Below are positions 24,760 through 46,935 of a stretch of DNA of 64,000 nt, one piece after another. How positions within the stretch are numbered: position 1 is the first letter of the stretch; each line of letters begins with the position of its first letter. The notes below the pieces were generated by a model. The model did not search any database. It saw only the letters and a list, made by a program, of their open reading frames with translations, and was not told where the DNA came from. The stretch comes from an uncultured Verrucomicrobiota bacterium (lineage in GTDB: Bacteria > Verrucomicrobiota > Verrucomicrobiia > Limisphaerales > AAA164-E04). A program made the position numbers and the translations under genes. The stretch lies in NCBI GenBank assembly GCA_964342825.1, contig CAYFHO010000003.1:42971-106970 (forward strand), in the 5' to 3' direction.

Positions 24760-25041
24760 GACGCTCTGAATTCCTTAGAGCATCCAGAATGCCAACCATG
24801 TCAAAACAGGATCAATGAACGGAAAGAGTGAGGATTTTCTCAAATTTGAAAGTGCAACAGGACTTACAAACAGGAAAATCAAACCTTAGAAACGTGGTTA
24901 AATACTGGATTACAACAAGTTAATCCGCCTCAAGGCTAGAAAAACTAAAATCCGACAATTGAGCTTTTCTCAAAAATGCAATGTCTCGCTAACACTGCAA
25001 TACCTATCTTTTGCAATGCGTTTAAAGCCTTTCGCATGATT

Positions 25042-26514: not shown

Positions 26515-26515
26515 A

Positions 26516-28804: not shown

Positions 28805-28855
28805 TCCTGATCTAAACAAATTCTGTAATCGCGGTTATCCTCTGGTGCTGGTGAC

Positions 28856-29692
28856 TCAGTCTTCCAGCAATCGGATCTCAACCTTGCGGTATTCCACAGG
28901 ATGACTTTCGGACTGCAAGGAGATGCTTCCACCAAAAATCCGTGCATCGCCGCCGTTGGCTTCTATCAATAGTTTGGAATGCGGATCACCTTCATCCAAC
29001 ACCGGATGTGTCAGTTCGAAGACCGTTTCCCCCTCCATGATGCATTTGAGTGATTCATGGCCCCTCACTTCGACTTCCACGGTTACCCACTGCTCTCCAT
29101 GATAAGTTTTGGAACTCGAGTTGGTGCAGTGCCGTTTGGTGAGTCTGCCATCTAATGAAATATGGGTACCAGGTGTGCAGATGTTGGCAGTGGACCTTTT
29201 ATTTTTTCCGTCGCCGCCAAGTAACTGAACTTCAATCGAAGCGGGAAAATCCTGATCCACATCCATTGTTTCAGGAAGCTCCCCATGTAGCATCAATCCA
29301 CTGTTCCGGATCGCCCAACCAGGTCCACCTTTGACCTGTTGACCAACAAAACGGTATTCCGCTCGAAGTACATAATTGCTGTAAGGGGCATGATAAAACA
29401 AATGCCCAAAAGTCTCCTTGAATTCGGGGTAAGCCTTTGGATCATATCCCACCTTGAGAATCCCATCCTCAACCCGGAATGTGTTGCCATAGTTTTCACC
29501 CAGTTTGTGGTATCGGATCTTGGGGATCCATCCATCGAGGTTCTTTCCATTGAATAACTGAATCCAACCTTCTTCAGACGATTCACCCTGAACATTTTGT
29601 GTTGAGAAAAAATAAGAAGTGGCAACGAAAGCTACCACTAGAAACGTTAAAAGCCGCTGAAAAGAAAAATTGGATTTCATGGACAGATTCAA
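28856..29692 (-). CDS. DUF1080 (3-keto-disaccharide hydrolase-like) protein, secreted
   Basis: Signal peptide, then GWIQLFNGKNLDGW and a C-terminal VEYRKVEIRLL, both hallmarks of DUF1080. Confidence 0.75.
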   Translation of the reverse strand: MNLSMKSNFSFQRLLTFLVVAFVATSYFFSTQNVQGESSEEGWIQLFNGKNLDGWIPKIRYHKLGENYGNTFRVEDGILKVGYDPKAYPEFKETFGHLFYHAPYSNYVLRAEYRFVGQQVKGGPGWAIRNSGLMLHGELPETMDVDQDFPASIEVQLLGGDGKNKRSTANICTPGTHISLDGRLTKRHCTNSSSKTYHGEQWVTVEVEVRGHESLKCIMEGETVFELTHPVLDEGDPHSKLLIEANGGDARIFGGSISLQSESHPVEYRKVEIRLLED

Positions 29693-30221
29693 TCAGGATT
29701 ATGGTCGGGACACAAGCTCATGAAACAGAATAAAGGAAGCTTACTGTGTTGAGATGTAACCCACTTAATTAGATGAGCTGCATCGTCGACCTGCACTGCT
29801 TGCTGCGAAAAGGTGATTACAAGACGCAAGTTCCCCGATAATCCAGACCATTCCGAGCGATGCTGATTATTTGAGCAAAGGGGGCACCCGCTCTGTTGCG
29901 TGGTTCCTATCTCTCAGTAACGGAGAGGCATAAATAATTTGGAAATGTGGAAAATTTATGATGATTGCAAGGGCACCTGGGTTATCACCTCATTAAAGAA
30001 ACACATCCTGATGGATGAACCCCAACAAAAACATCCGATGACATTAGCGGGTAGATGCGGAGGACAGTGCTTGTTTTGGGATTCAGGAAAAGCAAAACCC
30101 AACATTCCCTTGCCTGATTTGATAAAACCCCAATTATTCATTACGCTGATCAAAAAATGACCTTCAACAAGCTTTAAGATTTAAGGACGAAGACATTTGG
30201 AAAAATCGTTACCTCTAACCA

Positions 30222-30554
30222 ATGAGTAATCGAAGAGAAGAAAAAATGGTTGCTGGATTTTTGGCAACGATTACCTACGGGATCATCGCTTTGCCCACAG
30301 TGGTTGCCGGATGGTCAAAGTGGCCTCCAAGATTTTCTTTGTCGTCGGCATTATTGGCCCCTTTCGGACAAATTGCCGTGCAACACAATTCGAGTGCTTC
30401 TGTGGCCTTCCTTTTAACCATTATTCCAATGATTACCTTGGGTATGCTGATTACCAAATCCTGGGTTGCACAGCAGGTTCAACGTAGCCTGATTTGGTCA
30501 ATAGTTATTTATTTTGCTGCCGTCATCGCTGCCATTTTTTTGAGCAACTCATAA
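30222..30554 (+). CDS. hypothetical small membrane protein
   Basis: 110-aa ORF with 3-4 hydrophobic segments. No motif. Confidence 0.35.
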   Translation: MSNRREEKMVAGFLATITYGIIALPTVVAGWSKWPPRFSLSSALLAPFGQIAVQHNSSASVAFLLTIIPMITLGMLITKSWVAQQVQRSLIWSIVIYFAAVIAAIFLSNS

Positions 30555-30724
30555 TGCACTTATCTGATTCTCTACCTGGTGCACACCACTTCGGGTTTGA
30601 AAAAAACGTTCCCAAAAACATACTGACAAAATATGCACGTTTACTATGATTCGAATCAATGAATCCAGCTAGACGCACACCTGCTCCATGCACAATTTTC
30701 GGGCATTCAGGTCCGCTTTGTCCA

Positions 30725-33418: not shown

Positions 33419-33455
33419 AAGCAGCTCGCCTGTAAACTATTTAAATTCAAAAACC

Positions 33456-34853
33456 ATGAAACCATCCCGCATCATTACACAGCCAAGTCGTCGCGACTTC
33501 CTTTACGGATTGGGAGCCGGACTGGGTGCTGTTGCTTTTAGCTCCATGTTGAATGGAGCGAACTCCAAACCCACTTCACCGCACCATGCCGCACGTGCTA
33601 AAAGATGCATTTTTCTAATGATGGAAGGAGGGCCATCGCACATTGACACCTTTGATCCCAAACCCGAATTAACAAGGCGACACCTGCAAGAATTTTCAAG
33701 GTCGGGAGAAATGGAAAGTGCCATGTCTTCAGGCAAAAGGTATTTTGTCAAAAGCCCATTTGATTTCATCAAAGCCGGACAGAATGGAACGGACATTTGT
33801 TCGCAATGGGTTCATTTGAAAGATTGTGTGGATGACATGTGCTTTTTTCGCGGTGCACAAGTCGAATCGGTCAATCACCCAACTGCCTGCTATCATGTGA
33901 ACACCGGAAATCGATTCGGCGGAGACCCTGCGATTGGGGCATGGATGACTTACGGATTAGGAACCCTGAATCAAAATCTACCCGGATTTGTCGTTTTACC
34001 CAGAACAAGCTACCCGCAAGGTGGGCCTGCAAATTGGTCGAACGGCTTCCTGCCCGCACAATTTCAGGGCACTCCGTTTCGTGCCAAGGGTAGCCCGATT
34101 CTGGACTTGAATCCACCCCATGGCACGTCACCGATCCGCCAAAGAAGCAACCTCGACTTGTTAAGCAAACTAAATACGAAACACCTCGAGGCAAGGCCTG
34201 GGCGAAGCGAACTGGAAGCTCGCATGCAGTCCTATGAATTGGCGTTTCGCATGCAATCCGAGGTCCCCGAAGTGCTGGATCTGAAAGCCGAAAACCAGGC
34301 AACGCTAGATCTGTATGGCATAGGGCAATCCAACACTGACGCATTCGGTAGAAAATGCCTGATGGCCCGTCGACTCATTGAGAAAGGGGTTCGATTTGTT
34401 CAAGCCTACGCCGGTAACTGGGATAGTCATGACTATATTGAAAGAGCACATGGCAACCTGATCCACTCGGTCGACCGCCCTATAGCAGGTCTGCTGAAAG
34501 ATCTGAAAAACAGGGGATTATTGGAAGAAACATTGGTCTTTTTCTGCGGAGAATTTGGACGTACCCCAGACAACGGTCTGCGTGGAGGTGGAAAATCCTA
34601 TGGCCGTGACCATAATGCCAAAGCAATGGCGATGTGGTTTGCCGGAGGCGGAACCAAAGGAGGCCACACTATAGGTGCGACCGACGAAATAGGGGCGGAA
34701 GCGGTCGAAAACGTACACCACATCCGCGATGTTCATGTTACCCTGCTTCATCTTCTCGGACTGGATGACAATAAATTAACCTACTACCATGCCGGTAGGT
34801 TCAAACAACTCAGTCAGTTTGGTGGACAGGTGATTCAGGAAATTATAGCATGA
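33456..34853 (+). CDS. DUF1501 (sulfatase-like) protein with a Tat signal
   Basis: Twin-arginine signal SRRDFLYGLGAGLGAVAF, plus MEGGPSHIDTFDPKP and GEFGRTP. It is paired with the upstream PSCyt protein, as is usual for this family. Confidence 0.8.
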   Translation: MKPSRIITQPSRRDFLYGLGAGLGAVAFSSMLNGANSKPTSPHHAARAKRCIFLMMEGGPSHIDTFDPKPELTRRHLQEFSRSGEMESAMSSGKRYFVKSPFDFIKAGQNGTDICSQWVHLKDCVDDMCFFRGAQVESVNHPTACYHVNTGNRFGGDPAIGAWMTYGLGTLNQNLPGFVVLPRTSYPQGGPANWSNGFLPAQFQGTPFRAKGSPILDLNPPHGTSPIRQRSNLDLLSKLNTKHLEARPGRSELEARMQSYELAFRMQSEVPEVLDLKAENQATLDLYGIGQSNTDAFGRKCLMARRLIEKGVRFVQAYAGNWDSHDYIERAHGNLIHSVDRPIAGLLKDLKNRGLLEETLVFFCGEFGRTPDNGLRGGGKSYGRDHNAKAMAMWFAGGGTKGGHTIGATDEIGAEAVENVHHIRDVHVTLLHLLGLDDNKLTYYHAGRFKQLSQFGGQVIQEIIA

Positions 34854-34857
34854 ACGG

Positions 34858-35715
34858 ATGACTGAGACATCGACATTAATTCATGTTTTCCCCGGCCAAG
34901 GTTCTCAAAAGAAAGGCATGGGAGAGGGATTATTTGAACAATTCCCCGACATCACCGCGGCGGCGAATGCAGTTCTCGGGTATTCCATAAAGGACCTTTG
35001 CCTTGAAGATGCCAATGATCAACTGAATTTAACGCAGTTCACTCAACCTGCACTCTACACCGTCAACGCCCTGACCTATCTCAATCTTAAGCAGGAATCC
35101 AACCCTGCACCTGACTTTGTAGCTGGACACAGTCTGGGGGAATACAATGCTTTGCTGGCAGCGGGTGTTTTTGATTTTGAGACTGGTTTAAAATTGGTGC
35201 AAAAGCGTGGTGCCTTGATGGCCGAAGCCAAAGGTGGTGGAATGGCTGCCGTTCTTGGAATGCCTATTGCAGAAATCGAAGCAGTCATCAAAAGCCATGG
35301 CAGCAAGGAAGTCGGGATCGCCAATCTCAACGCGCCTCAGCAAACTGTCCTGACAGGCAGTAAAGAAGCCATCCTCGACATTAAAACCGCTTTTGAATCA
35401 GCAGGAGCGAAAAGATACATTCCGCTCAAAGTGAGTGGAGCCTTTCATTCCCCCTTCATGGAACCCGCCCGTCAGGAGTTTTCAAATTTTCTCAAGACCT
35501 TCACCTTCAATCCACCTGCGATTCCAGTGATCTCCAATGTGGAAGCTGCCCCTTACCCAGACGAAGGCATCGCAAACCTGCTGGCACAACAAATCACCTC
35601 TCCAGTTCGCTGGGTTGAAACCATCCAGTACCTCAAGCAACAACCCAATCCCGAGTTCCACGAAGTCGGCCCCGGAAAAGTCCTCCAAGGGCTAATCCGT
35701 CAAATCACCATTTGA
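34858..35715 (+). CDS. fabD: ACP S-malonyltransferase
   Basis: FPGQGSQKKGMG, the active-site GHSLGEY, and VSGAFHSP. Confidence 0.9.
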   Translation: MTETSTLIHVFPGQGSQKKGMGEGLFEQFPDITAAANAVLGYSIKDLCLEDANDQLNLTQFTQPALYTVNALTYLNLKQESNPAPDFVAGHSLGEYNALLAAGVFDFETGLKLVQKRGALMAEAKGGGMAAVLGMPIAEIEAVIKSHGSKEVGIANLNAPQQTVLTGSKEAILDIKTAFESAGAKRYIPLKVSGAFHSPFMEPARQEFSNFLKTFTFNPPAIPVISNVEAAPYPDEGIANLLAQQITSPVRWVETIQYLKQQPNPEFHEVGPGKVLQGLIRQITI

Positions 35716-35772
35716 TGGTACTGGACCAAGGATTGGGATGAGAGCTAATCACCGATTTCCCAATCCATGAAA

Positions 35773-35821
35773 TCCCCAAACGTCGTAATCCCGAACCAAT
35801 GCGAAAATAAAGTGTTGGAAA
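35773..35821 (+). repeat. 49-bp repeat, copy A (48/49 identical to 37174-37222)
   Basis: TCCCCAAACGTCGTAATCCCGAACCAATGCGAAAATAAA[G/C]TGTTGGAAA was read at both places. There is a single mismatch, at 35812 versus 37213. Confidence 0.85.
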
Positions 35822-35898
35822 AACGAATTCTGGCGACAGGCAGGCACCATACTGCACCTGCTCGAGTGAAAAGTTTATCGAACGAAGGCAACGTCAAT

Positions 35899-36117
35899 CT
35901 ACAGTTCCTCTTTTGATACAGACCGAGTCACCGTTTGACCTCCTTTTGTTGGGATTCTCGTGACCATACGTTCGGGATGCTGCCGTTGGTTAGCGCGTGC
36001 GGCTTCGGCAATCTTTCGAAAATCGTATCCGTGTTTTGCAGCATTCTGCTCTTTCAACCTGCGCACGTCTTCAATGATCGAATCCTTCGTTTCTTCAACT
36101 ATCGCGTTCATCACCAA
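35899..36117 (-). CDS. small partner protein of the PIN-like gene (putative antitoxin-type protein)
   Basis: 72 aa. The pattern VRRLKEQNAAKHGYDFRKIAEAARANQRQHPERMV recalls small proteins encoded directly downstream of this PIN-like family. It overlaps the PIN-like gene by 23 nt. Confidence 0.45.
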   Translation of the reverse strand: MVMNAIVEETKDSIIEDVRRLKEQNAAKHGYDFRKIAEAARANQRQHPERMVTRIPTKGGQTVTRSVSKEEL

Positions 36118-36580
36118 TAAATTCTTCTGGGGTACAAATTACGGGTAAACTGACTCCGTGTCGATCAAAGCATCGTTGGATCTGACGCCTATTGTGGGGA
36201 TTTGCTATATGCCTGCAATTCCAAGTCAGTAAGAAATCCACGTTGTGCACACCTGCACAAGCAATGTGAAGGGCGTCATCAATGGCTTTGGATGGAATCA
36301 CTCCGTCAGTATGCAGATTTTCAGCCAACTCTACGACCTTATCGTCGATAACAAGAAGCCGAACATCTTCTAGCAATTGCACTCGTTTTTGAGCCATGCT
36401 GACTTCTCCTTGTGCGAGTTCATCAATGACAATTTGGGAAGTCAGTAATTCGTATCGACTGCGATGTCCGTCCCACCAATCAATCGTGAGCTGTTGCCGG
36501 GCAGCTTGAATAATATCTCGCGGCTGACGAGCAACATAGTAACTCGGAATCGTCGTTTCTATGAATACTTAGTCAGGCAT
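36095..36580 (-). pseudogene. PIN-like (VapC-type) toxin gene with an in-frame TAA at codon 4
   Basis: Minus-strand reading gives ATG CCT GAC TAA (36580-36569), then an open frame VFIETTIPSYYVARQPRDII...DDALHIACAGVHNVDFLLTWNCRHIAN... down to 36095. The first canonical start after the stop is ATG 36397, which would remove about 60 N-terminal residues. Confidence 0.55.
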
Positions 36581-36767
36581 TTCCCAACAATCCCCATTCA
36601 ACGTCCTTCAAAATCTGCGCTTCATTTAGGTCGCAACCATGGGAATCCACATAGCGCTGCAAAGCCTCTATGACTACCTCTTCCGCAGTCTTGATCCATC
36701 CAGCATGTACCATCTGCTCTAATTGACCATGAATACGGTCAAGGCATTCTACCGTGATCCTTTTCAT
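36573..36767 (-). CDS. ribbon-helix-helix / ParD-like antitoxin-type protein
   Basis: 64 aa. MKRITVECLD... forms the beta-strand, and GWIKTAEEVVIEALQRY is ParD/CopG-like. Its TGA stop overlaps the ATG of the PIN-like gene (AATGCCTGA). Confidence 0.5.
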   Translation of the reverse strand: MKRITVECLDRIHGQLEQMVHAGWIKTAEEVVIEALQRYVDSHGCDLNEAQILKDVEWGLLGNA

Positions 36768-37046
36768 AACCTAAAAATACCTGTTGGGCTACCAACTGAC
36801 AAGATTGGACATTGTGGGGGAACAGTCATTTGAGCAGGAGAATTGCCGGAATCATTTTCGATGGTCCCGATACATGTTTTTGAGAAACCTGAATTTGTCG
36901 AATTGTGCAGTGCTGGGTAAAAGAATTACATTCCTTCCCGACAGTCGCATCCATCACTGATGGCGAACTGGGTGGTAAGAGGGGGAAAAGCCTTTAAAGC
37001 TATCCTTAGTTGGTCGGGACAGCGGTATATAGGAGTTTAATAAAGC

Positions 37047-37093
37047 TGGTACTCCTGCCGGGACTCGAACCCAGATCGACGGTTTAGGAAACC
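37047..37093 (-). repeat. attL-type 47-bp copy of tRNA-Arg positions 30-76
   Basis: TGGTACTCCTGCCGGGACTCGAACCCAGATCGACGGTTTAGGAAACC is identical to 45902-45948. Sequence diverges immediately outside the repeat on both sides. Confidence 0.9.
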
Positions 37094-37173
37094 TCCTCAC
37101 AACAACCGGGACCGTTCGGGATAACGACCCCTTAACAACATGACTACAACGCGTTATGAATCGCGCTCCAATT

Positions 37174-37222
37174 TCCCCAAACGTCGTAATCCCGAACCAA
37201 TGCGAAAATAAACTGTTGGAAA
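37174..37222 (+). repeat. 49-bp repeat, copy B (island-internal arm)
   Basis: 48/49 identical to 35773-35821. It lies 81 bp inside attL. Confidence 0.85.
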
Positions 37223-37242
37223 TTGTTGGAAATTGTTGGAAA
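37214..37242 (+). repeat. three tandem TGTTGGAAA motifs with 10-bp period
   Basis: TGTTGGAAA occurs at 37214-37222, 37224-37232 and 37234-37242. The same 9-mer recurs at 45741-45749, 45753-45761 and 35813-35821, always in the same orientation. Confidence 0.8.
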
Positions 37243-37323
37243 ACCTGCGACTCCCCGTAAAAAAGATATCACGTTCATAGATTGGAGTGAAATATAGCTG
37301 AAAGGAAGCTGAGGTATTAGATT

Positions 37324-37521
37324 TCAGTCATGTTGAGTACTGAAGTCTTGATTACGGTTGGATTTCTGATGATGGGTTTTGCTTGCTGAAGCTGCATATT
37401 CATCCACGCTTTTATGCGCGACTTCTCTGACATATGGTGTGAGATACATCCCTGCCTCCTGATCGAGGTATTCCAGGATTTGGGTTGCGGATAATATGAG
37501 GTTCTTTATTTTGACATACAT
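37324..37521 (-). CDS. hypothetical 65-aa protein downstream of jetD
   Basis: The ATG is 9 nt after the jetD stop, preceded by TGAGGCAGAGGA (GAGG/AGGA Shine-Dalgarno-like). No recognisable motif. Confidence 0.35.
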   Translation of the reverse strand: MYVKIKNLILSATQILEYLDQEAGMYLTPYVREVAHKSVDEYAASASKTHHQKSNRNQDFSTQHD

Positions 37522-37530
37522 TCCTCTGCC

Positions 37531-38703
37531 TCATTTGATTAATGCATCGGTTTGATTTAAAGATCTAATTGCAGATACTATGGCTGTGTGCGGAATTTTT
37601 TCTTGCTCGATGCGTTGGTTTTTCATTTTGCACTGCTCGTATGCGTCATATTCCTCCGCAGTAAGATTATCTGAGATTTGGGAGGTCGATTTTTTACCGC
37701 GGCCAGCGAAATGCTGCCAACGAACCAGTGCTGCTGAGTCCATAAACATGCTTGTGGTGTGCGGATACAATGCTCTAAAAAGGGAGAGAATTTCGAAACC
37801 ATGAACATCTAAATCACCCCAGTATGTGATCTCGACATCATGAAGCCACTGAAACCGACGATAGTTCGCTACTGCAAAACCATGGCCAAGCATAGCGAAA
37901 GTGTTGGGAATGGTCGGAAGTGTAAGCAGGCTGATTTTGTTTTCTACGATGATGAGTCGGCATTTTGGTGGATTCAAATTTGAGACATGCCATGATGGCA
38001 GCGTCAATTCATCGACAGGAAATCCCATTGCTTCTTGGAGACCTTGGTCTAAGAACCGAATCAACACATGGGAATCCAGCCATCGAAGACCAAAGCGTGG
38101 CTCAAACTTAGACTCTTCCGCCACGATCTGTGAGGGTTTGAGTACCAGGTCAAGCCACTGATGAAGAATCGCTTTGTTTTGCTCTACCAACTTGGTATTT
38201 ACATCAACAGGGATCTCGCGTGCGTAGCAGTGAGGTCGTGGATGATTCACGAGGAAGTTGGCCACCAGAATCAGGTCTTCTATCACATCTACGACGCCAT
38301 TGAAGCGCTTCAGATTCTGGAGCAGCCATCTATCGATTAGAGTGGGGAATGCACGCTGAAGGCATTCGACCGCATCCATGTATTCAATGTATTCATTGGT
38401 TTTTGAAACCATCTTTAGGAAATCTTCCCGCGTTTCAATTTCGATTCGAACAGGAAACTGGTTCTTTCCGAACTTTCGGGATTTCTTTTCTTCCCAACGA
38501 ACCGAATAGCCATAACCCACCGCTTCTTTGCTCTTGGATCGCAGTAAATGAACTCCGAGATTTGCCTTTTGTAGATCATCCGATTGCCGAACAAGTTGGC
38601 ATCGGATCGGAAGAGGGAAGATCGTCTCTTCGTTAAGGCTGGCGCGAACAACATCCCAGTATTTGTTGAGAGCTTTCTTCTTTATTTCTTCTGGGGAAAT
38701 CAT
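37531..38703 (-). CDS. jetD: Wadjet JetD (Toprim-type nuclease subunit)
   Basis: 390 aa. The C-terminal module has the Toprim-like Glu in IIVENK (E254) and the DxD in YWGDLDVHGF (D297/D299, 37807-37815). There is a 4-nt overlap with jetC. Confidence 0.8.
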   Translation of the reverse strand: MISPEEIKKKALNKYWDVVRASLNEETIFPLPIRCQLVRQSDDLQKANLGVHLLRSKSKEAVGYGYSVRWEEKKSRKFGKNQFPVRIEIETREDFLKMVSKTNEYIEYMDAVECLQRAFPTLIDRWLLQNLKRFNGVVDVIEDLILVANFLVNHPRPHCYAREIPVDVNTKLVEQNKAILHQWLDLVLKPSQIVAEESKFEPRFGLRWLDSHVLIRFLDQGLQEAMGFPVDELTLPSWHVSNLNPPKCRLIIVENKISLLTLPTIPNTFAMLGHGFAVANYRRFQWLHDVEITYWGDLDVHGFEILSLFRALYPHTTSMFMDSAALVRWQHFAGRGKKSTSQISDNLTAEEYDAYEQCKMKNQRIEQEKIPHTAIVSAIRSLNQTDALIK

Positions 38704-41700
38704 GAGCCGGTTTTGTCAGTCAGTTCCTTGAATTCTCGTGAGTTCATGGTAAGTACCTCAGATTTTGAGGTATTCGGATCGATCATGGTTTGCACGTAAT
38801 ACTGCACGTACCTTTCGGCAACGCGGGCTTTGGCATCCAAGGGGGCAACAATCAAGAGCTGCAAGCCAAAGCTGGCAAATAGATCGAGGGCGTATTCCGC
38901 AAAATGGTCGTCGATTTTCGAGAACATCTCGTCCACCATGACGAAGTGGAAACGATCACTTTCGTCGGCGGCTGGGTCGATATCGTATTGGTAGGCAATG
39001 GCGGCAACCAGAATGGTGAACGCGAGCTTGGCCTTTTGGCCGCCCGACTGCCCTGCACTGTCTGAGTAGGAACTTCGCTCGTCTCCGGATTCCTGATCGA
39101 GTTCACGAGCGATAAAATCAAACCATCGTCGCACATCAGAGACTTTATTTCGCCACCGCTCTTCCTCGCCGAGGCGTCTGATGAGTTTTTCGATTCGTTT
39201 GAATCTGGCTTCGTTGGCTTCCAATGAATCTTCGAAACCACCACTGATGCACTCGCTGAGCTGTTGTTTGAATTCCGTGATTTCGCGATCGAAGACGTCC
39301 CTAGGCTCCAACCGCATAACTGTCCCGGGATTGAATTCCACGTTTTTCAAGGCTTGATTTAGAATCGCGATCTTGTTCCGAATTCGCCCTTGTTCAGTCT
39401 GCAAATTGCCATTTAGCAGGCCGATTTCATGCGTGACTTTTTCGTTCAGCCGTTCCTTGAAGCGTTTTTCATGGTGCGGCAATCCTTCCGACTCGATTTT
39501 TTCCAATCTATCTAAAAATGACCCGAGATACTCCGACTGAGGTTTCATATCGCGTTCAAATTGCGCGAATTTACGCAAAAAGCGCCCCATACTCTGTTCG
39601 AGGTTGGCGCGGATGGGATCCAGTTCCTTGCGTGCCATTTCAATTTGTTCGTAGTTGTCGCGATTAAAATTCTGCTCAGCCTGATTGAGATTTTCAGGAG
39701 TCAAAGTGCCTTTCGGGTATTCGGTATCCAATCGTGAAAAATATCCTTGGTGTATGGTTAGTTCACCTGAAGCTTCGAATTTAGTCCAAGCCGAAGAAGC
39801 ATTGGCCAATCGTTGTTCCAGATTATCACGTGTGTCCTTCAAGCGAGCTTCCTGCCGTAGTGAGTCGTCGCGGTCATCATTGAGTTTCGCTTTGCGTTCT
39901 ACTGCACGTTTCAGTTCGGTCTTAAGTACGCGGATACTGTCATCAGCTTGCTCTAGCTCCTCCTTTTCCTTTTTCAACCGATAGATTGTGAGGGCTTCAC
40001 TCCGGTAATCGATCTGCTCGTAGGAATTAAACTTCAATGCTTGTTCAATGGCGTGAAGGCGTCTGTTAATACGGCCGAGTGCCCCCTTTTTTCGGTCTCT
40101 CTTTTCAGTCAGCTGATGGACGGTGGAGCCGAAGTCTTTGATTCGCATTTCTAAGTGCTGGATTTTAGCTTTGTTGTCCCAACCAAGAACATAGCGCCCG
40201 GGGTCCACCTGCTTGGTTCGGTCGTCTTTAACGTGGTATACGCTGCTAGTCTTGACGTGCCGCTCTTTCGTCATTGCAAATTCTTTAGCAGAGCGAAATT
40301 CATCCATGGTTTCGCAGCACGTATAATTGAAGCGTTGTTCCAATTGAATTTGTAACCATGGAAGGAGTGAGTGATTGGATTTGAGATTGATTTTGTTAAG
40401 AAGTGAATTCGGGAGAATGAGGGATTCGTGAGACGTGGTGACATCAGATTCCACCTTGAGGTAAACCAGACGCTGCCCTTCATTTCGGTTGTTGGCCAAT
40501 CTCGTACGTTCTACGTAGTTGCTGACCTGTCGGTAATGTTCCTTTGGAACGAGTAAGCTGAGGCCAAAGCTGCGCAGTACCATTTCGATGGAACTCTCCC
40601 ATTCGCGGTGTTCCTGTTTTACCGAAATCAGTTCAGCTGCATAAGGCAGACTTGCTTCCTGTAGCCCGAGATTTCGACAGATCTCAGCCCTAAGTTCCAC
40701 CAAACTTTCATCCATGTTGGTCCGCCTCTGTTTGAGCGCGTTTCGTTCCCGTTCCAGGTTCTCCTTTTGTTTTGTCGCTTCGCGTAATTCAATAGCGAGG
40801 TTAGTTACCTCATCGTCGAAGCGCCTGAATTCCGGCTTCAGCCTACTCTGAAGTTCGTTGAGTTCTTTTCGTTTTGCGACGAAGCTGTCCGCGTCGCTGA
40901 TTTCCGGTCGAAGTTCAGCCGATTTCAACGTTTCACCGAATTCGTTGAACGCCCGTTCTTTGTGTGATCTTTCAGTTTCGTGTAATTTGATCAAATTCGG
41001 GATCTCTTTCAGTCGATCACCTCCAGCATTCTCAATGTCATTTGTCAGCTTGGTGATATCAGAATCCGCCCGACCAATTTCCTCCTTTAGTTGTTGGATC
41101 GTTGTCCTGATCCGTTGAAGTTGATCGGAGACCTCATTGAATAGCGGGCGGAGCAATTTAAGTGTTCGCAACACGAAGTATGCCTCGGCCGCTGCTTTGA
41201 GAGCTTGCAGTTCCGTGAGTCGTTTTGATTGCTCATTAAATGATTCTCCAAATTTGGCAACCGGCAGCAGCAGATCCCGCTGATCGCGAATATCCACCAA
41301 GGAATTGTATGCTTCCGAAAGGTCCGCGAAGTGTCCAAGGATACCCTTGATTTGATGACCACAGTCAGGTTTTTCCAACATATGGGCACGAATGAAATCG
41401 TTGAGACTGCGAATGTCTTTTACTGCGACGGTCTGATTGAAGACGTCCATCGCCTTTTCTTGCATGCCGGCATAGGTGCGGATCCTTTTCGAGTACTCAG
41501 CAAAATGGGGCGATGCTTCCCAGCCTTTTCGTATTATCTTCTTTCGTAGCTGTGCCGTGCCTTGAATGCCGTTCAAGTGGTCTGCGATTGAGCGTTCTTG
41601 TTCCGAGAAACAGAAAACCTTGTGAATCTTCTCATCAGTTCCGGGAACCAGCACTTGTGCGATGGTGAACTCTTTTTGACTCCCTGAATTGACGAAGTGG

Positions 41701-42068
41701 GCTAGCAGACAGGAATAGAACTGATATCCGGTTCGGAGGTAGCGAGTCTGGGCACGATTACTTTCTTCAGAACTTCCATGGCCGTAAGCCCCCTTTACGT
41801 AACTGGACTCATTCCGTTCACGCTTACCCGTTGTTCCAGCTGCGACATTGTAATTTCGAATATTCTGAGGAACCAACAGAGTGAGAATGGCGTCGACCAA
41901 CGTGGATTTGCCTGAACCGTTCAGGCCGACCAAAAGCGTCGCTCTTCCATTCGGGCGAACGGTGTAAACCTGCCCGTCTGAACTGTCGAAAGTGCCCCAA
42001 TTGAACACCTCCATCTTGCTCAGACGAAATCCAGGAAAGGCAGGCAACTTATGGAAATGTTCATCCAT
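38700..42068 (-). CDS. jetC: Wadjet JetC (SMC/MukB-like ABC ATPase)
   Basis: 1122 aa. Walker A GLNGSGKST (41901-41927), about 800 aa of coiled-coil-like E/K/R/L-rich sequence, then the signature-like SGGQKAKL and Walker B FHFVMVDEMFSKID. Confidence 0.85.
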   Translation of the reverse strand: MDEHFHKLPAFPGFRLSKMEVFNWGTFDSSDGQVYTVRPNGRATLLVGLNGSGKSTLVDAILTLLVPQNIRNYNVAAGTTGKRERNESSYVKGAYGHGSSEESNRAQTRYLRTGYQFYSCLLAHFVNSGSQKEFTIAQVLVPGTDEKIHKVFCFSEQERSIADHLNGIQGTAQLRKKIIRKGWEASPHFAEYSKRIRTYAGMQEKAMDVFNQTVAVKDIRSLNDFIRAHMLEKPDCGHQIKGILGHFADLSEAYNSLVDIRDQRDLLLPVAKFGESFNEQSKRLTELQALKAAAEAYFVLRTLKLLRPLFNEVSDQLQRIRTTIQQLKEEIGRADSDITKLTNDIENAGGDRLKEIPNLIKLHETERSHKERAFNEFGETLKSAELRPEISDADSFVAKRKELNELQSRLKPEFRRFDDEVTNLAIELREATKQKENLERERNALKQRRTNMDESLVELRAEICRNLGLQEASLPYAAELISVKQEHREWESSIEMVLRSFGLSLLVPKEHYRQVSNYVERTRLANNRNEGQRLVYLKVESDVTTSHESLILPNSLLNKINLKSNHSLLPWLQIQLEQRFNYTCCETMDEFRSAKEFAMTKERHVKTSSVYHVKDDRTKQVDPGRYVLGWDNKAKIQHLEMRIKDFGSTVHQLTEKRDRKKGALGRINRRLHAIEQALKFNSYEQIDYRSEALTIYRLKKEKEELEQADDSIRVLKTELKRAVERKAKLNDDRDDSLRQEARLKDTRDNLEQRLANASSAWTKFEASGELTIHQGYFSRLDTEYPKGTLTPENLNQAEQNFNRDNYEQIEMARKELDPIRANLEQSMGRFLRKFAQFERDMKPQSEYLGSFLDRLEKIESEGLPHHEKRFKERLNEKVTHEIGLLNGNLQTEQGRIRNKIAILNQALKNVEFNPGTVMRLEPRDVFDREITEFKQQLSECISGGFEDSLEANEARFKRIEKLIRRLGEEERWRNKVSDVRRWFDFIARELDQESGDERSSYSDSAGQSGGQKAKLAFTILVAAIAYQYDIDPAADESDRFHFVMVDEMFSKIDDHFAEYALDLFASFGLQLLIVAPLDAKARVAERYVQYYVQTMIDPNTSKSEVLTMNSREFKELTDKTGS

Positions 42069-42711
42069 CGCGTGAATCGCCGGAATTTTGGGCGTCGTGC
42101 TTAACTACGTGTTCGTTTAGCATTTGCCGAATGTCTTCCAATTGTTGCACCCCGATTCGTGCCTTGAGAATTCGGCGAATTTCTAAGTCGTCGCCGTCTG
42201 GATTCAACGGCTTTAGAAAACCAAGATCCTTGACCGTTCTGATGGCTGAATCGAAGTCTCGCTGAAGTTTTCCTTCATTGCTGTTCTCTGGAACGAATGC
42301 TTTCCAATCTTCATATAAATCGGCCTTACGAACCACACAACGTGTTGAGTCTACCTGTTCGTCATCAAAACGACGAAGTTCATCACGAAGCATTACGCAA
42401 AGCACAGTTGCTGCATATCCCAAGCGGCTCTTCTGAAACAGCTTCGGCAGATTCTCATAACCTTCTGGTGCTTGGTCGTCTTCCCCGATCGGACGGAGGA
42501 ATGCGTAGCCTTCCGGTTCATCCAAAATCAACACCATCCCAATGAATGCGAAATGCCTCTCCAGACGGGAGCGATGTGTCAATACGATTTCCCAAACCCG
42601 CTCGTCAGATTCGTAAACCACCCCTTGCAAGAGTCTGACAGCTGCGGTGCTAGCGTCATGAAAGTCTGGAAATGTGAATCCTACCGCTGTGCGTTGTTGC
42701 GCGTCGTCCAT
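42061..42711 (-). CDS. jetB: Wadjet JetB (DUF4194-like, MukE/KITE analogue)
   Basis: 216 aa. LLQGVVYESDERVWEIVLTHRSRLERHFAFIGMVLILDEPEGYAFLR matches my memory of the DUF4194 core. There is an 8-nt overlap with jetC. Confidence 0.75.
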   Translation of the reverse strand: MDDAQQRTAVGFTFPDFHDASTAAVRLLQGVVYESDERVWEIVLTHRSRLERHFAFIGMVLILDEPEGYAFLRPIGEDDQAPEGYENLPKLFQKSRLGYAATVLCVMLRDELRRFDDEQVDSTRCVVRKADLYEDWKAFVPENSNEGKLQRDFDSAIRTVKDLGFLKPLNPDGDDLEIRRILKARIGVQQLEDIRQMLNEHVVKHDAQNSGDSRDG

Positions 42712-44177
42712 TATTCCTCTTTGGCTTGGTTTCGAAATACCACATGAGGTAAATCAATGACTCGGGTGGATTTGCCCTCCTCTTCTAGTCGGATCTCGTC
42801 TGTGAGATCTGCATCAACATAATGATCATCCTGTCGCGCGATCTGCAAGTAACCTAACAATTCCACGGCACCAGCCTTGGGAGGATGAAGGCCGACAAGT
42901 TCCGGCAGACTGATCGCGGGCTTCGCATCTAAACATTGGCGGATTTTGTCGCGCATCCCTTTCCAATCCAGTCGGGCCATCTGTGCCAACATCCGAAATG
43001 CCGCGCCCCGTTTATTCTCGCCTGGCGAATGCTCGCTGACAGAAACTGGATCGAATGTCTGGGGAGGATTCCAGAATGTTCGATGAAACGGATTGGAGAT
43101 CGCGATTCCATGGTCAATTTCGATTGAAAAGTCTCCTTTCGGTGGATTATCAACGCATCTCGTGGCCAAACCCTTGATCTCTTTAAGCAAATGCCGGAGC
43201 CGTCGACGATCATTCACCGCATCCTCGTCCAGCAATCGTCGCAATGCAGTGGTCAGACGCTGGTTCGTGCTCATGATCTTGCGAGCTTCAGCCAGCAACA
43301 TAGGAACCATCTCGTGGAGATGCCGAAGACCATCATTGTGATCAGACAATTCCTTCAGCTCGCTGATGCGCGCGGTCCTCTCCTGAAGTTGCGACTGCTG
43401 CTTGGGCGAAAGAATCAGGCTTACGAAGGCATAGAAGCTGACACCTTGATCGTCCTGCTTTAGACAGTCTTCCTCATCCAATGCGAAACCTAGCAAACCT
43501 CCCCTACTATCGCTTTCGGCGATCTGCCGTTTCTGCACTTCTCTTGTAATGGACTTGAATCGTTCCTCGACCATTCTGAAATCGCCGAGCAATTCCTTGA
43601 GTTGTCTCAAGACGAAGAAAAACAACTCCCGAATCTGGGCTGCTTCGTAACGAAGTACATCACCGGTTCTCTGTATGTCATTCATTTCCGCTTCGATTTG
43701 ACACTTTTTTTCTTGAAGGTGCTGCAGTCGCCCCTCCGGATCATCAGAAGCGTGTATCACGATTTCCTCTAGTTTCTGCAGTACAAGTCGAATTCTAGAT
43801 TCTGTAGCAATTGAGCCGAGATCCTTTTGCACAGCACGGTCCAGAAATTGAATGACATCCTCTGTATGCGGTGTGAGTTGAAATTGAGCCTCGTCAGACC
43901 CTTTGTCGTAATAACGGGTTAGATAGCGCGAATCTTCGTGACACCATTCGTTGAGATAGTCTTCGGGACGTTGCACCAGTGCATCAGGCTCTGTTTCCTG
44001 TATCTCGTCGCGATAGGCACGAAGTTCAACGAGCAATTCAGTTTCTGGAATTGTGATACGTCCGCCTGTTTTGAACTGGCGAAACAGGAATTCGATGACG
44101 TAGGGAGCTGTTCCTGCCCGAAGGAGTTTTACCGAGGGCGAAGTCTTAAAGAATGTCTGCAGATCACGAAGCTTCAC
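42711..44177 (-). CDS. jetA: Wadjet JetA (DUF3375-like, MukF/kleisin analogue)
   Basis: 488 aa with a GTG start. The N-terminus PSVKLLRAGTAPYVIEFLFRQFKTGGRITIPETELLVEL is typical of DUF3375. There is a 1-nt overlap with jetB (TAATG). Confidence 0.75.
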   Translation of the reverse strand: MKLRDLQTFFKTSPSVKLLRAGTAPYVIEFLFRQFKTGGRITIPETELLVELRAYRDEIQETEPDALVQRPEDYLNEWCHEDSRYLTRYYDKGSDEAQFQLTPHTEDVIQFLDRAVQKDLGSIATESRIRLVLQKLEEIVIHASDDPEGRLQHLQEKKCQIEAEMNDIQRTGDVLRYEAAQIRELFFFVLRQLKELLGDFRMVEERFKSITREVQKRQIAESDSRGGLLGFALDEEDCLKQDDQGVSFYAFVSLILSPKQQSQLQERTARISELKELSDHNDGLRHLHEMVPMLLAEARKIMSTNQRLTTALRRLLDEDAVNDRRRLRHLLKEIKGLATRCVDNPPKGDFSIEIDHGIAISNPFHRTFWNPPQTFDPVSVSEHSPGENKRGAAFRMLAQMARLDWKGMRDKIRQCLDAKPAISLPELVGLHPPKAGAVELLGYLQIARQDDHYVDADLTDEIRLEEEGKSTRVIDLPHVVFRNQAKEE

Positions 44178-44986
44178 AGTGCAAAACGGAATGTTGCCAT
44201 TTCATTCGAAAAAATAGTGCATACCATTGGACAAATACCGTCCAAGGCTGAAGTTTTTAGGATTAGGTTGCCTCTTCGTCATAAATTTTTTGCAGCGGCT
44301 CGGCATTGGTGGAAAGCGAGTCGGAGTGGGATAGCCTGGTCTAAACGCTCTTCCCTCCCAATAGACCCAAGTATTTATTGTATCGGCCACTTTCCGATTT
44401 CCATATCAATCTTCCCCTGAATGCTGCATAGCATGAAACTTATTGACGCTCATTCAATTTTTGAACCAACCAGATTGATAGCATGTTACGTCACAGTAGG
44501 ATCTGATTTTCTGGTTGTCAAGATCCTTGCATCGAGAAGGCCATAGGTTGAAGCGACCAAGGACCAAAGTCGTTCATTTCAGCCATCCAAACATGGAATC
44601 ATGGCTTGAGTGGAGGAGTCTGTCGAAGCTGTATTGAGGTTTGCAATAGCGGCGTACTCACACCGAATCACCTATAGTGTGGAGGGCGTTCGAAACTTTC
44701 TATGCCTTATCGCTTTGGGTTTGTAGAAACCATACGGGGAGATTTTGGTAGCGAAATTGCCGTGATGACTTGTGCAAATTGGATATGGACAGGCTCGATT
44801 CATTGTAAGAGAGGAGGACAATGGATCTGTCTTTTTTTTGATCAATGCCCAACTTATACAAGCAGAGAGAGGTGCGCGGCTACCAATAGCTAAATTCCAC
44901 AATTGACGGCAGAAGCACAGGTTTAACCTTTCTTTACTGCCAATTGTAGAAGATTGTAAGTGTGCACTTCGATGATTTTTGGGAAT

Positions 44987-45388
44987 TCACGTAGGTGTGA
45001 TGAGATTGATGTTGGGAAAATAAGTTCGATAGCGAGCCACGTCCCGGGTGACTAGTGTGTAGCCTTCGACCTCAGCGTGCGCTCCAATGTAGAAATCTGG
45101 CATCGGCGACATCTTCGTACCTCCGCTGCGTCTGTATTTCAAAAACGCTTGCGAGGCGAGCCATCCCGCGGAGTAGGGCAATGATAATCGTTGAAACACC
45201 TCTGGATCGAGCCAACGATCAAGGTCTGCAGCTGTGGCGAATGCTGGGGCAAGCTCGGCGTAGATGATAGGATTGATAGGAATCGGCCCCTTCGCAGCAG
45301 CACGACGGAATTCTTCTTCCGACCATGCCAGCCAGGCGGTATCAGCGGTGGCGATATCGAGCAGGACGTTCGTGTCGAAAAGAATCAT
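44987..45388 (-). CDS. vapC: PIN-domain toxin VapC
   Basis: 133 aa. MILFDTNVLLD carries the first acidic PIN residue, and there is a later ...HAEVEGYTLVTRD segment. There is a 4-nt overlap with the upstream antitoxin gene. Confidence 0.75.
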   Translation of the reverse strand: MILFDTNVLLDIATADTAWLAWSEEEFRRAAAKGPIPINPIIYAELAPAFATAADLDRWLDPEVFQRLSLPYSAGWLASQAFLKYRRSGGTKMSPMPDFYIGAHAEVEGYTLVTRDVARYRTYFPNINLITPT

Positions 45389-45588
45389 TCCTCGCTTCGA
45401 GTGAGTTTCATCACATCCTCGGTTTTCAAGTCAGGCTTCGCCGCACCGCGTGCACTTTGCAGCCAATTTTCAACTGGCGGAGGCGTGGCACGTTCTTGAC
45501 GGAAAGCTTCAAACCAACGCGCCAATTGATCCACTTGCGGCTTGGGCAATTTTTCAATCGCGGCTTCAATTTCAGCAACGCTACTCAT
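45385..45588 (-). CDS. VapB-type antitoxin (addiction-module component)
   Basis: 67 aa. EIEAAIEKLPKPQVDQLARWFEAF plus the C-terminal RGAAKPDLKTEDVMKLTR is a pattern common in partners of PIN toxins. Confidence 0.6.
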   Translation of the reverse strand: MSSVAEIEAAIEKLPKPQVDQLARWFEAFRQERATPPPVENWLQSARGAAKPDLKTEDVMKLTRSEE

Positions 45589-45740
45589 AGCAGCAATCTA
45601 GCACGCCACCCCCTCGGCAGGCAAGAATCGAACTGCTCATCTTGGATAGCACGTGCATTCGCCTATAGGTATTAGAACATGCTTGTAGTTTGTGAGGATG
45701 AATGATCGAGTGTAGGAATGTTGATTCAGTTACTACCAGC

Positions 45741-45761
45741 TGTTGGAAAAGTGTTGGAAAA
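45741..45761 (+). repeat. two TGTTGGAAA motifs on the tRNA-proximal island arm
   Basis: TGTTGGAAA occurs at 45741-45749 and 45753-45761, about 140-160 bp from the 47-bp core at 45902. Confidence 0.75.
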
Positions 45762-45901
45762 ATTGTGCCACTTGAAGAATTGGATCAGAAAGGTGAGCAG
45801 CGTCCCCCTTTCTTCCCGAATTCTCTCCCAATGATCCCGAAAACGAAAACTGCGGTTCTTTAAACCGTCGATATAAAAATATAATAATATTTACATCTTA
45901 G

Positions 45902-45977
45902 TGGTACTCCTGCCGGGACTCGAACCCAGATCGACGGTTTAGGAAACCGATGTTCTATCCAGTTGAACTACAGGAGC
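45902..45977 (-). tRNA. tRNA-Arg (anticodon CCT), 76 nt with encoded CCA
   Basis: Hand-folded. Acceptor GCTCCTG/CAGGAGT; D arm GTTC-AACTGGATA-GAAC; anticodon arm TCGGT-TTCCTAA-ACCGT (U33, CCT, A37, with a 27:43 T-T mismatch); 4-nt variable loop; T arm CTGGG-TTCGAGT-CCCGG; A73 and CCA. Confidence 0.85.
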
Positions 45978-46065
45978 ACGTAGGAGTCGAGGTTTAGCAT
46001 GGGTAAATTGGTTTGCGAAGCCAAAAAATGATTGGAACAGGAGTTTCTTCTCGATTTCCAGATTT

Positions 46066-46935
46066 TTACGGGTTTTGTTTGCTGAGTCTTTGAACCTGTC
46101 TCAAAAGGATTGGAAAGGCAGGCTCGGTCATTCCGTGACCGTAGCCTTGGAGTTCGTAGAGGATCGTTTCTTTGTGTCCGGCGACTTTCATCATACGCAT
46201 CATGTAGGCGTTTTCTTCATATCTGCCGAGCAATTCCAATTCACGATCTCCGGTAATAAGTATGAGTGGTGGAGCATCGGCCCTGACATGATAGAGCGGT
46301 GCCAATGCATCAATGATGGGTTGTTCGCCGGCAATGCCCCTCTCCTCACGGACGGTGAAGTGTGTGATGGTGTGTCCGCTGAATGGTATCAAACCGGCAA
46401 TCGAGTTGGCATCTATGGAATGAGCCGCGAGCCATTGCTTGTCCAAACCGATCATGGATGCAAGGTATCCTCCTGCGGAATGTCCAGAGAGGTAGATTAA
46501 GTTAGGATCACCTCCATATTCTGATATATGTTTGAATACCCAGGCAACTGCGGCAGCAGCATCCTGGATATAGACGGGGCTTTTAACTTTCGGAAACAAT
46601 CGGTAGTTCGGGGCTACGATGATCATTCCCTGTTCTCTGAGCCTGGAGGGAATCTGCTTTTCCCCACTGCGCAATCCCCCACCATGGAACCAGATGATAG
46701 TTGGTGCATGGTTGGCTTCTTCCGGAACGTAAATATCCAACTTACATCTTTGTGCGGCATAGGCATCGAAACCTGGTTGATGGGCGACAAGGTAGGGAAT
46801 ATCGCTATGTGATTGTTGCTGTTTTTTCTCTGAAGCTGAAAGATCCAGGCCAGGAATGGCTTTTCCTGATAGGATCAAAATCAACATCAGGAGATGAAAA
46901 ATATCCTGTTTTAGGGACAGACGATTTGAATTCAT
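46066..46935 (-). CDS. alpha/beta hydrolase (esterase/lipase-like), secreted
   Basis: Oxyanion motif WFHGGG and nucleophile elbow GHSAGG. Signal peptide present. Confidence 0.7.
   Translation of the reverse strand: MNSNRLSLKQDIFHLLMLILILSGKAIPGLDLSASEKKQQQSHSDIPYLVAHQPGFDAYAAQRCKLDIYVPEEANHAPTIIWFHGGGLRSGEKQIPSRLREQGMIIVAPNYRLFPKVKSPVYIQDAAAAVAWVFKHISEYGGDPNLIYLSGHSAGGYLASMIGLDKQWLAAHSIDANSIAGLIPFSGHTITHFTVREERGIAGEQPIIDALAPLYHVRADAPPLILITGDRELELLGRYEENAYMMRMMKVAGHKETILYELQGYGHGMTEPAFPILLRQVQRLSKQNP

Follow-up and report, generated by a model that had tools for sequence, protein, structure and literature searches.

A type I Wadjet system on a probable integrase-less genomic island in the 3′ half of tRNA-Arg(CCT) in a marine Verrucomicrobiota genome

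Gene content and boundaries of the Wadjet locus

Two exact copies of a 47-bp sequence in the 64-kb stretch of DNA analysed here (the window) enclose an interval of approximately 8.8 kb, which contains jetABCD, a PIN/VapC gene with a small gene upstream, and a 65-aa ORF, all on the minus strand. The jet ORFs adjoin or overlap by a few bases and were identified by profile searches as JetA (DUF3375; 42711-44177; Pfam 4.2e-91, PADLOC JetA1 3.6e-104), JetB (MksE-like; 42061-42711; Pfam DUF4194 9.5e-36, PADLOC JetB1 4.7e-50), the SMC-like ATPase JetC (38700-42068; PADLOC JetC1 1033 bits, Pfam AAA_29 and SbcC_Walker_B) and a type I JetD (37531-38703; Pfam JetD_C 3.4e-40 and DUF3322, PADLOC JetD1 9.4e-122). 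The type I Wadjet system, an anti-plasmid SMC nuclease, is complete, with JetA1, JetB1, JetC1 and JetD1 in one operon (PADLOC E values from 4.7e-50 down to 0). An 809-bp gap without a convincing gene (44178-44986), presumably the upstream region of the jet operon, holds small ORFs only, with no family match and no integrase remnant detectable by tblastn. It is followed by the gene for a PIN-domain toxin (VapC-like; 44987-45388) that scored 28.2 bits against Pfam PIN (cut-off 23.6 bits) and gave a weak NCBIfam VapC match, far below the cut-off of that family. The 67-aa ORF upstream of the PIN gene (45385-45588), which overlaps it by 4 bp, has no Pfam or NCBIfam family match and is termed a putative antitoxin on its position and overlap only. 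The 65-aa ORF (37324-37521), also called as a gene in assembly contig L030, matched nothing in Pfam, PADLOC or NCBIfam. Exact-protein look-ups returned no record identical to JetD, or to the esterase or M50 peptidase of the right flank.

The right-hand boundary is an intact tRNA-Arg(CCT) gene with encoded CCA (45902-45977, minus strand), identified by ARAGORN as the one tRNA of the 64-kb window and matched by Rfam RF00005 with 61.7 bits at 45905-45977; an Rfam search over 35600-46100 found nothing besides this tRNA. The 47-mer TGGTACTCCTGCCGGGACTCGAACCCAGATCGACGGTTTAGGAAACC occurs exactly twice in the window, at 37047-37093 and 45902-45948, with no further copy in the window at up to 3 mismatches and none in 100 shuffles. 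It spans the anticodon loop, 3 nt of the anticodon stem on the 5′ side and the whole remainder of the tRNA in the 3′ direction, with the encoded CCA. The copy within the tRNA gene is the proximal att core, and the distal copy is a displaced tRNA 3′ fragment that is no tRNA itself. The sequences flanking the two copies differ immediately on both sides (c at 37046 vs g at 45901; t at 37094 vs g at 45949). The left junction is spanned by two independent assemblies of the same organism (L030, megahit; L032, SPAdes), in which jetD, the 65-aa ORF, the att fragment, and 64-aa and 100-aa ORFs are present; among the independent assemblies obtained, no contig spanned the right junction. Logan unitigs L029, L031 and L001 end 30 nt inside the repeats, as is expected of true repeats at k=31. 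Most of this layout had been described in a first-pass annotation of the sequence: its hand-folded tRNA (45902-45977, minus strand, CCT) was confirmed by ARAGORN and Rfam, and the exact-repeat search reproduced its perfect 47-bp duplication, with instantly diverging flanks and correspondence to tRNA positions 30-76. In its inventory of the interval (jetABCD, vapBC and one small ORF), the jet and PIN genes have profile matches and the antitoxin is putative.

The att block in relatives and the distribution of the Wadjet genes

Duplication of a tRNA end is the usual scar of site-specific insertion, and in Williams' scheme islands that have a duplicated 3′ segment of a tRNA at their ends reportedly occupy the anticodon-loop-class sites of tyrosine integrases. 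A genome scan with the 47-mer matched only three related MAG loci. As a non-tRNA fragment bounding other DNA, the 47-mer is present in contigs L010, L013, L017, L018 and L022. One related species has both empty (L012, L015 and L019) and occupied (L013) sites: the left flanks of L013 and L012 are 100% identical over 847 bp, past which L013 continues into the att fragment and element DNA, and L012 into an intact tRNA and the esterase. In relatives other than this species, tyrosine integrase and prophage genes directly adjoin the tRNA: the distance from a PF00589 integrase to the att block is 95-150 bp in both L028 and L010, a further integrase is present in L021, a family A DNA polymerase is also encoded in L028, and a terminase-small-subunit-like HTH protein in L022. 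The order W-type arm, core, another element in L010 and L018 produces tandem-looking junctions. Judged by these sequence comparisons, the 47-mer functions as an attachment core among related marine Verrucomicrobiota, and the repeat at the present locus is supported as a genuine att-type duplication. As the target of integration, the tRNA-Arg(CCT) gene marks the proximal boundary of the island, and the island is located in a variable hotspot that the related marine Verrucomicrobiota group has in common.

Related contigs long enough to cover the region downstream of the tRNA lack the Wadjet block, and in six related loci, whose FabD is 82-83% identical, the 10 kb following fabD contain neither a tRNA nor jet or vapBC genes. 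Many relatives retain synteny with the right flank (esterase, M50 peptidase, hemE/N/Y/H); left of the tRNA nothing is syntenic. Since fabD and tRNA-Arg belong to different synteny blocks and are not neighbours in relatives, the locus has been rearranged. For this species only island-bearing contigs were retrieved, with neither an empty site nor an excised circle among them; all retrieved same-species contigs, and by count also longer unlisted ones, have both fabD and vapC.

The composition of the island sets it apart from its surroundings. Its tetranucleotide distance of 0.0168 (r = 0.80) is the most deviant in the window, compared with 0.008-0.012 (r = 0.89-0.96) for 8.8-kb segments with little or no island sequence, and its synonymous codon distance of 0.060 (null maximum 0.053) is likewise the most deviant. 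There is no step in GC content at the island, and the oligonucleotide deviation could partly reflect the composition of the JetC coiled coil. No JetA homologue exceeded 50% identity; those among the top matches that bear names are from Planctomycetota, and a Verrucomicrobiales match is 41% identical.

These comparisons bear on three further claims of the first-pass annotation. Its reading of the repeats as attL and attR gains from relatives in which this block delimits other elements inserted at the tRNA, from the empty/occupied polymorphism and from the adjacent tyrosine integrases. Its description of the Wadjet system as accessory and horizontally acquired agrees with the absence of the genes from the six fabD loci and from downstream of the tRNA in relatives, with the deviant composition and with the distant JetA homologues; the compositional or phyletic discontinuity whose absence it had named as part of a refutation is present in the tetranucleotide, codon and JetA data, with GC flat. 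The empty site that it expected, with fabD-proximal DNA abutting the tRNA, was found in no relative.

Island arms, mobility genes and the probably foreign DNA to the left

The left, tRNA-distal arm (37094-37330) contains a hairpin (37108-37131, minus strand), a repeat termed R2b (37174-37222) 80 bp inside the left end of the island, three tandem copies of TGTTGGAAA (at 37214, 37224 and 37234) and one AGGTATTAGA (37312-37321). The right, tRNA-proximal arm (45589-45901) contains AGGTATTAGA (45667-45676), two copies of TGTTGGAAA (at 45741 and 45752) and a block of approximately 85 bp conserved with L010 and L018 (45790-45875), within which lies a terminator-like hairpin (45853-45867, minus strand) that duplicates the anticodon arm in inverted orientation. 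The five arm copies of TGTTGGAAA are on the same strand, and the window has 7 copies in total vs 1.2 expected; one 10-mer is unique to both island arms, again on the same strand (0.03 expected). The motifs are putative binding sites, and could alternatively be replication iterons or chance. Integrase-bearing elements of relatives carry GTCAATAAAATGTCAATG in both arms, and by analogy the sharing of motifs between the arms of the present island would favour the island reading. In IMG/VR contigs TGTTGGAAA arrays adjoin primase genes, a hint that the arrays here may resemble iterons; viral contigs scanned for the 47-mer, R2 and the conserved arm contained none of them. The ~85-bp arm is ~85% identical to DNA between an ordinary-looking esterase gene and the att fragment in L010 and L018, and because of this neighbour could be chromosomal there, not element-borne. 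It is absent from the downstream flank of the tRNA in all other relatives.

No integrase, excisionase or other mobility gene was found in the island by Pfam, PADLOC and NCBIfam searches of its ORFs; a recombinase domain is present in none of these ORFs, which account for all those of the island. A tblastn search of the 64-kb window with the integrases of L021, L028 and L010 returned nothing credible at E values up to 10, and no integrase or excisionase sequence, even as a remnant, was found in the island or elsewhere in the window. The island also differs from a prophage or phage satellite (P4-like, PICI) in having no integrase, replication, packaging or capsid-interference genes. The first-pass annotation had everything between the repeats arriving as one mobile unit; such a single arrival is conjectural, and the block as it stands is no self-mobile unit, as no mobility gene was found. 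With no integrase or excisionase now present, it would be what decay has left of an element, or else a CIME-like element that is non-autonomous.

Lineage-specific DNA extends ~1.3 kb beyond the distal repeat (about 35730-37046), with small TA-like ORFs; this stretch is missing from relatives, with which synteny stops at fabD. A PIN-like gene within it has lost its start codon, its frame is open, and Pfam matches its C-terminal half only. The stretch also contains R2a (35773-35821), 58 bp after the fabD stop, a second copy of R2b with 48 of the 49 bases matching, which is absent downstream of fabD in relatives. The presence of R2a outside the island is unexplained by one simple integration, and 35730-37046 is probably the remnant of an older, related insertion. 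Three candidate signals on this side of the island were rejected. The "TGGTACT" after the fabD stop, considered as the relic of a third att, gave an insignificant alignment (p about 0.39), and a relative (L034) has similar native sequence; a tandem twin island predicted from the R2-to-att spacing would need its third att to lie in the conserved 3′ portion of fabD, and a simple tandem model therefore does not work unless a further deletion or rearrangement is added; and the 15-19 bp left of the distal repeat that resemble native downstream flanks of the tRNA in relatives are too short and too AT-rich.

Origin of the island and comparison with known systems

We consider it likely that 37047-45948 is a genomic island which entered the 3′ half of tRNA-Arg(CCT) by tyrosine-recombinase site-specific recombination and is now integrase-less, either CIME-like or decayed; it is probably an ordinary, non-autonomous island. 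The crossover would have taken place inside the 47-bp block, between the anticodon stem and the CCA end, so that the incoming DNA restored the 3′ part of the tRNA and brought the terminator-like hairpin behind it, with the original 3′ part shifted 8.8 kb away. The predicted attB is …GGAGTTTAATAAAGC followed by the full tRNA and the esterase side, and the predicted attP is the arm at 45.8 kb, the 47-mer and 37094…. The PIN toxin and putative antitoxin (VapBC-like) would stabilise the block, which, if CIME-like, would depend for any movement on the integrase of a related element. The mode of integration of this island is what we infer, as is loss versus trans supply of its integrase.

That the island is what deletions have left of a larger integrase-bearing prophage, satellite or IME, its defence and TA cargo now fixed in the chromosome, is a serious candidate, which we rate a little below an even chance. 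The lack of any mobility gene argues for such decay, as do the decayed appearance of the neighbouring 35730-37046, with its PIN gene without a start codon, the origin of fabD and the tRNA from different synteny blocks, and the TGTTGGAAA arrays beside viral primase genes, which hint at a lost replication module; however, both arms and both cores look intact, and there is no pseudogene debris, the genes being tightly packed save for the 809-bp gap, which has no integrase similarity. The intact att cores and arm sites (the arms as judged from their common motifs) would fit instead a block that is still mobile in cis or trans, excised and re-integrated by the integrase of a same-site element such as those of L010, L021 and L028, possibly after tandem accretion. 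CIMEs are a described class of such elements (PMC6323972), the 47/47 identity of a fragment free of tRNA selection suggests a recent event, same-strand repeated motifs are retained in both arms, and relatives have cognate-type integrases and tandem-looking junctions (L010, L018) at the same site. We nevertheless regard continued mobility as rather doubtful: the window contains no visible helper integrase, attP and attB junctions were not observed, the arm motifs are open to the iteron or chance readings given above, and the Wadjet system of the island would have its own 8.8-kb circle as a substrate.

The similarity of the ~85-bp arm to the DNA between esterase and att fragment in L010 and L018 raises a further alternative, namely that this block is native, that jet-vapBC arrived by another route (e.g. 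homologous recombination of a larger segment), and that the 47 bp are the scar of an older, unrelated element. The R2a/R2b pair and the synteny break do indicate more than one event at the locus. However, simple integration leaves the native flank with the displaced fragment, away from the rebuilt tRNA, so that the simplest source of an arm beside the intact tRNA is the element itself; the island ends also have three motifs in common in the same orientation, and the arm is missing downstream of the tRNA in all other relatives, which together make this reading improbable. Equally remote is a minimal active "defence hitcher" consisting of two att sites, TGTTGGAAA arm or iteron arrays and cargo, that would be excised, and perhaps replicated, by a helper of the same tRNA-Arg in marine Limisphaerales. 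Its 8.8-kb circle would be the kind of molecule that type I Wadjet destroys; such an element would thus require some way of evading what it carries; alternatively, the lack of an integrase would be where evolution has led under that conflict.

Read as a probable integrase-less island, the locus dates and delimits the acquisition of Wadjet in an uncultured marine verrucomicrobial lineage, and is one more case of a defence island in which the att sites persist without a recombinase. Wadjet cleaves circles of up to about 100 kb (bioRxiv 10.1101/2022.10.04.510915). The wider point is that a small excisable Wadjet carrier would be a target of its own cargo; otherwise this is a routine defence island. 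Defence islands of E. coli show similar behaviour: 18 hotspots are in tRNA loci, and Wadjet-carrying mobile elements have been reported (PMC10121019). Like tRNA-integrated genomic and defence islands, the present one stretches from an intact tRNA to a direct repeat of the 3′ part of that tRNA (anticodon stem to CCA), carries defence and TA cargo, and occupies a variable hotspot used by other elements in relatives; it differs from them in having no integrase beside the tRNA or anywhere in the island. CIMEs, known from Streptococcus and other genera, are defined by attL and attR flanks without integration and transfer genes (PMC6323972), and the present island resembles them in its apparently intact attL and attR and its lack of such genes. 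It differs in being without a known related ICE or IME partner, in its host, a marine Verrucomicrobiota (Limisphaerales-like) MAG, and in its att site, a tRNA at which the same-site helpers of relatives appear phage-like, not conjugative. The Wadjet system itself corresponds to type I (JetABCD / MksBEFG / EptABCD), with four genes in the order jetA-B-C-D, strong type I profiles and nothing unusual detected in the proteins; what distinguishes it is its location on a small att-bounded block.

A partial duplication of tRNA-Arg(CCT) at an integration hotspot

The sole tRNA of the window was identified by ARAGORN as tRNA-Arg(CCT) at 45902-45977 on the minus strand and was also called by Rfam (61.7 bits), in agreement with the first-pass annotation. 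The 47-mer TGGTACTCCTGCCGGGACTCGAACCCAGATCGACGGTTTAGGAAACC is present as two copies (37047-37093 and 45902-45948), with no further copy in the window when up to three mismatches were allowed and no repeat of this type in shuffles. The bases adjoining the two copies are unlike each other on both sides, confirming the perfect duplication with diverging flanks that had been reported. The 47-bp block corresponds to linear positions 30-76 of the tRNA: it takes in three bases of the 5′ anticodon stem and the anticodon loop, together with all sequence on the 3′ side of the loop, the encoded CCA included. In other assemblies of the source organism, the left (tRNA-distal) junction is spanned by a megahit contig (L030) and a SPAdes contig (L032), and Logan unitigs (L029, L031 and L001) stop 30 nt inside the 47-bp repeats, as expected of k=31 unitigs at true repeats, which supports the repeat structure. 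Downstream of the tRNA, at a distance of 30-54 nt, is a 25-nt inverted copy of its anticodon arm (45848-45872 versus 45930-45954). This copy folds into a terminator-like hairpin with a T-rich run after it on the tRNA strand, and is kept in the related loci L010 and L018.

Public genomes and metagenomes were scanned for the exact 47-mer, which was found at 26 loci, all on marine or estuarine Verrucomicrobiota-like contigs. It forms the 3′ part of the same tRNA in most of them, and the right side of the tRNA in most loci carries esterase, M50 peptidase, hemE, hemN, hemY and hemH genes as in the window (70-79% nucleotide identity). At five loci (L010, L013, L017, L018 and L022) the 47-mer exists as a fragment that leads into unrelated DNA. 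L013 shares 847 bp of left flank with L012 at 100% identity, past which L012 continues into an intact tRNA and the esterase gene, and L013 into the fragment and then element DNA; these two loci are an empty and an occupied site within one population. PF00589 integrases adjoin the att block in L028 (which also has a family A DNA polymerase), L021 and L010, and L022 has a terminase-small-subunit-like HTH protein. The fragment loci, the L012/L013 polymorphism and the adjoining integrases show that tRNA-Arg is an integration hotspot with the 47-bp block as its core, and the proposed att duplication is upheld. In some relatives, an insertion of approximately 5 kb with a truncated PF00589 integrase separates the tRNA, immediately at its 5′ side, from the esterase gene (L011 3796-5829, L016, L025 2472-7545 and L027), indicating that both sides of tRNA-Arg accept insertions. 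In the complete Verrucomicrobiota genome CP170459.1 (L004 6948-7978), the tRNA-Arg 3′ end is followed immediately downstream by ORFs that by eye resemble IS21 IstB/IstA fragments.

Cargo of the island and evidence for its foreign origin

Every gene between the 47-bp repeats (37047-45948, 8.8 kb) is on the minus strand: a 65-aa ORF (37324-37521), a complete type I Wadjet system called by PADLOC (JetD, JetC, JetB and JetA, 37531-44177) and, after a gap of 809 bp, a PIN/VapC-like gene (44987-45388) with a 4-bp overlap with a 67-aa gene (45385-45588). There is no recombinase gene among them, and tblastn of three tyrosine integrases from relatives' elements at the same tRNA site against the whole 64-kb window returned nothing credible. 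The block had been described as a mobile unit; being without an integrase, it is unable to move itself as it stands.

There is good support for the proposal that the island is accessory and was acquired horizontally. There is no conservation among relatives left of the tRNA. Genomes with a FabD 82-83% identical to that of the window (L033, a Limisphaerales MAG; L034; a JGI contig listed by genes only; and L054-L057) are collinear with 25039-35715, from xseA through the PSCyt, DUF1501 and fabD genes, as aligned for L033-L035 and read from gene order for the remaining loci. Downstream of fabD these genomes carry sulfatase, PAS kinase, PSCyt, DUF1501 and DUF1425 genes, and neither a tRNA nor jet or vapBC genes occur in this stretch. 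The tetranucleotide profile of the island is the most deviant of all 8.8-kb windows (distance 0.0168, r = 0.80, versus 0.008-0.012 and r = 0.89-0.96 in windows with little or no island sequence), and its synonymous codon distance (0.060) exceeds the maximum (0.053) seen in host gene blocks of equal size; GC content is flat and gives no island signal. The best JetA homologues are only 48-50% identical, the named ones being planctomycete, and identity to a Verrucomicrobiales protein is 41%.

DNA beyond the distal repeat

The first-pass annotation dealt with the DNA between the repeats; foreign DNA reaches further, as synteny with relatives ends a few tens of bases past the fabD stop and the stretch at ~35730-37046 is also outside it. 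Small TA-like ORFs are present in this stretch. One of them, a PIN-like gene (36095-36571, minus strand), is called as 100 aa that match the C-terminal half of the PIN domain. The frame of this gene stays open for another 58 codons upstream and reaches a typical PIN N-terminus (VFIETTIPSYY), with no ATG, GTG or TTG there, and it is probably a decayed toxin gene; a 64-aa antitoxin-like ORF (36573-36767) adjoins it. A 49-bp direct repeat, R2 (48/49 bases identical), has one copy 58 bp past the fabD stop (R2a, 35773-35821) and one 80 bp inside the island left att (R2b, 37174-37222); it is absent from the fabD flanks of relatives, and splits Logan unitigs exactly like a true repeat.

In all relatives seen, fabD (end 35716) and the tRNA (45977)-esterase-hem cluster are in different synteny blocks, indicating that the window's genome is rearranged with a breakpoint coinciding with the island region. 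The suggested empty site, in which DNA proximal to fabD would directly abut the tRNA, is therefore not expected to exist. The "FabD" gene itself (34858-35715) may be something other than housekeeping fabD, since several of its homologues in cyanobacteria, Scalindua and Bryobacterales (60-70% identity) carry the annotation trans-AT polyketide synthase acyltransferase. Elsewhere in the window, two stretches 2873 bp apart (60474-61021 and 63347-63894, repeat families D1 and D2) share 73-76% identity and probably represent paralogous genes in tandem.

Arm motifs and mode of insertion

Several motifs are common to both island ends in the same orientation. TGTTGGAAA is present as three tandem copies with 10-bp spacing at 37214-37242 (37214, 37224 and 37234) and as two copies at 45741-45760 (45741 and 45752); it is also found at 35813, and totals 7 in the window versus 1.2 expected. 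AGGTATTAGA occurs at 37312 and 45667 only (0.03 expected), and ATCCCGAA is also shared by both ends. Since integrase-bearing elements at tRNA-Arg in relatives have one motif, GTCAATAAAATGTCAATG, in both arms, the island motifs can be read as putative arm-type binding sites of one former attP. The TGTTGGAAA arrays could instead be origin-type replication iterons, as the triple array was found in only three IMG/VR contigs (L036 4841-4880, L037 1717-1745 and L038 10199-10238), each time directly downstream of primase genes encoding a DnaG-type fusion, or a Prim-Pol with PriCT_2 and AAA_25. The ~85 bp next to the tRNA (45790-45875), which hold the anticodon-arm-derived hairpin, are ~85% identical to DNA just left of the att fragments in L010 and L018. 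The simplest reading takes them as a conserved element-borne arm that has remained in tandem arrays; since the block lies next to an ordinary esterase gene in L010 and L018, its origin there could be chromosomal.

Insertion of the island into tRNA-Arg(CCT) by a tyrosine integrase is the best reading, and a likely one. Crossover would have occurred within the 47-bp block, bringing in Wadjet and the VapBC-like pair, with the integrase lost afterwards or never carried. In the hotspot the island would have come to lie next to what is left of a related, earlier insertion, and R2a would be accounted for by that remnant. That the island is now fixed and decaying is a tentative view, and mobilisation by a helper, in the manner of a cis-mobilizable element (CIME), seems rather unlikely. 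Type I Wadjet cuts circular DNA of up to ~100 kb (bioRxiv 10.1101/2022.10.04.510915), so the island, if excised as an 8.8-kb circle, would be open to cleavage by the Wadjet that it carries; such self-targeting is a speculative reason for the immobility of the island.

Mobile islands at tRNA hotspots are well documented as carriers of defence systems, Wadjet among them (PMC10121019). CIMEs, defined as att-bounded elements without their own integration or transfer genes (PMC6323972), are a named class of islands without recombinases, and the island in the window is likewise att-bounded and without a recombinase. It represents a known kind of defence island, here in an under-studied phylum.
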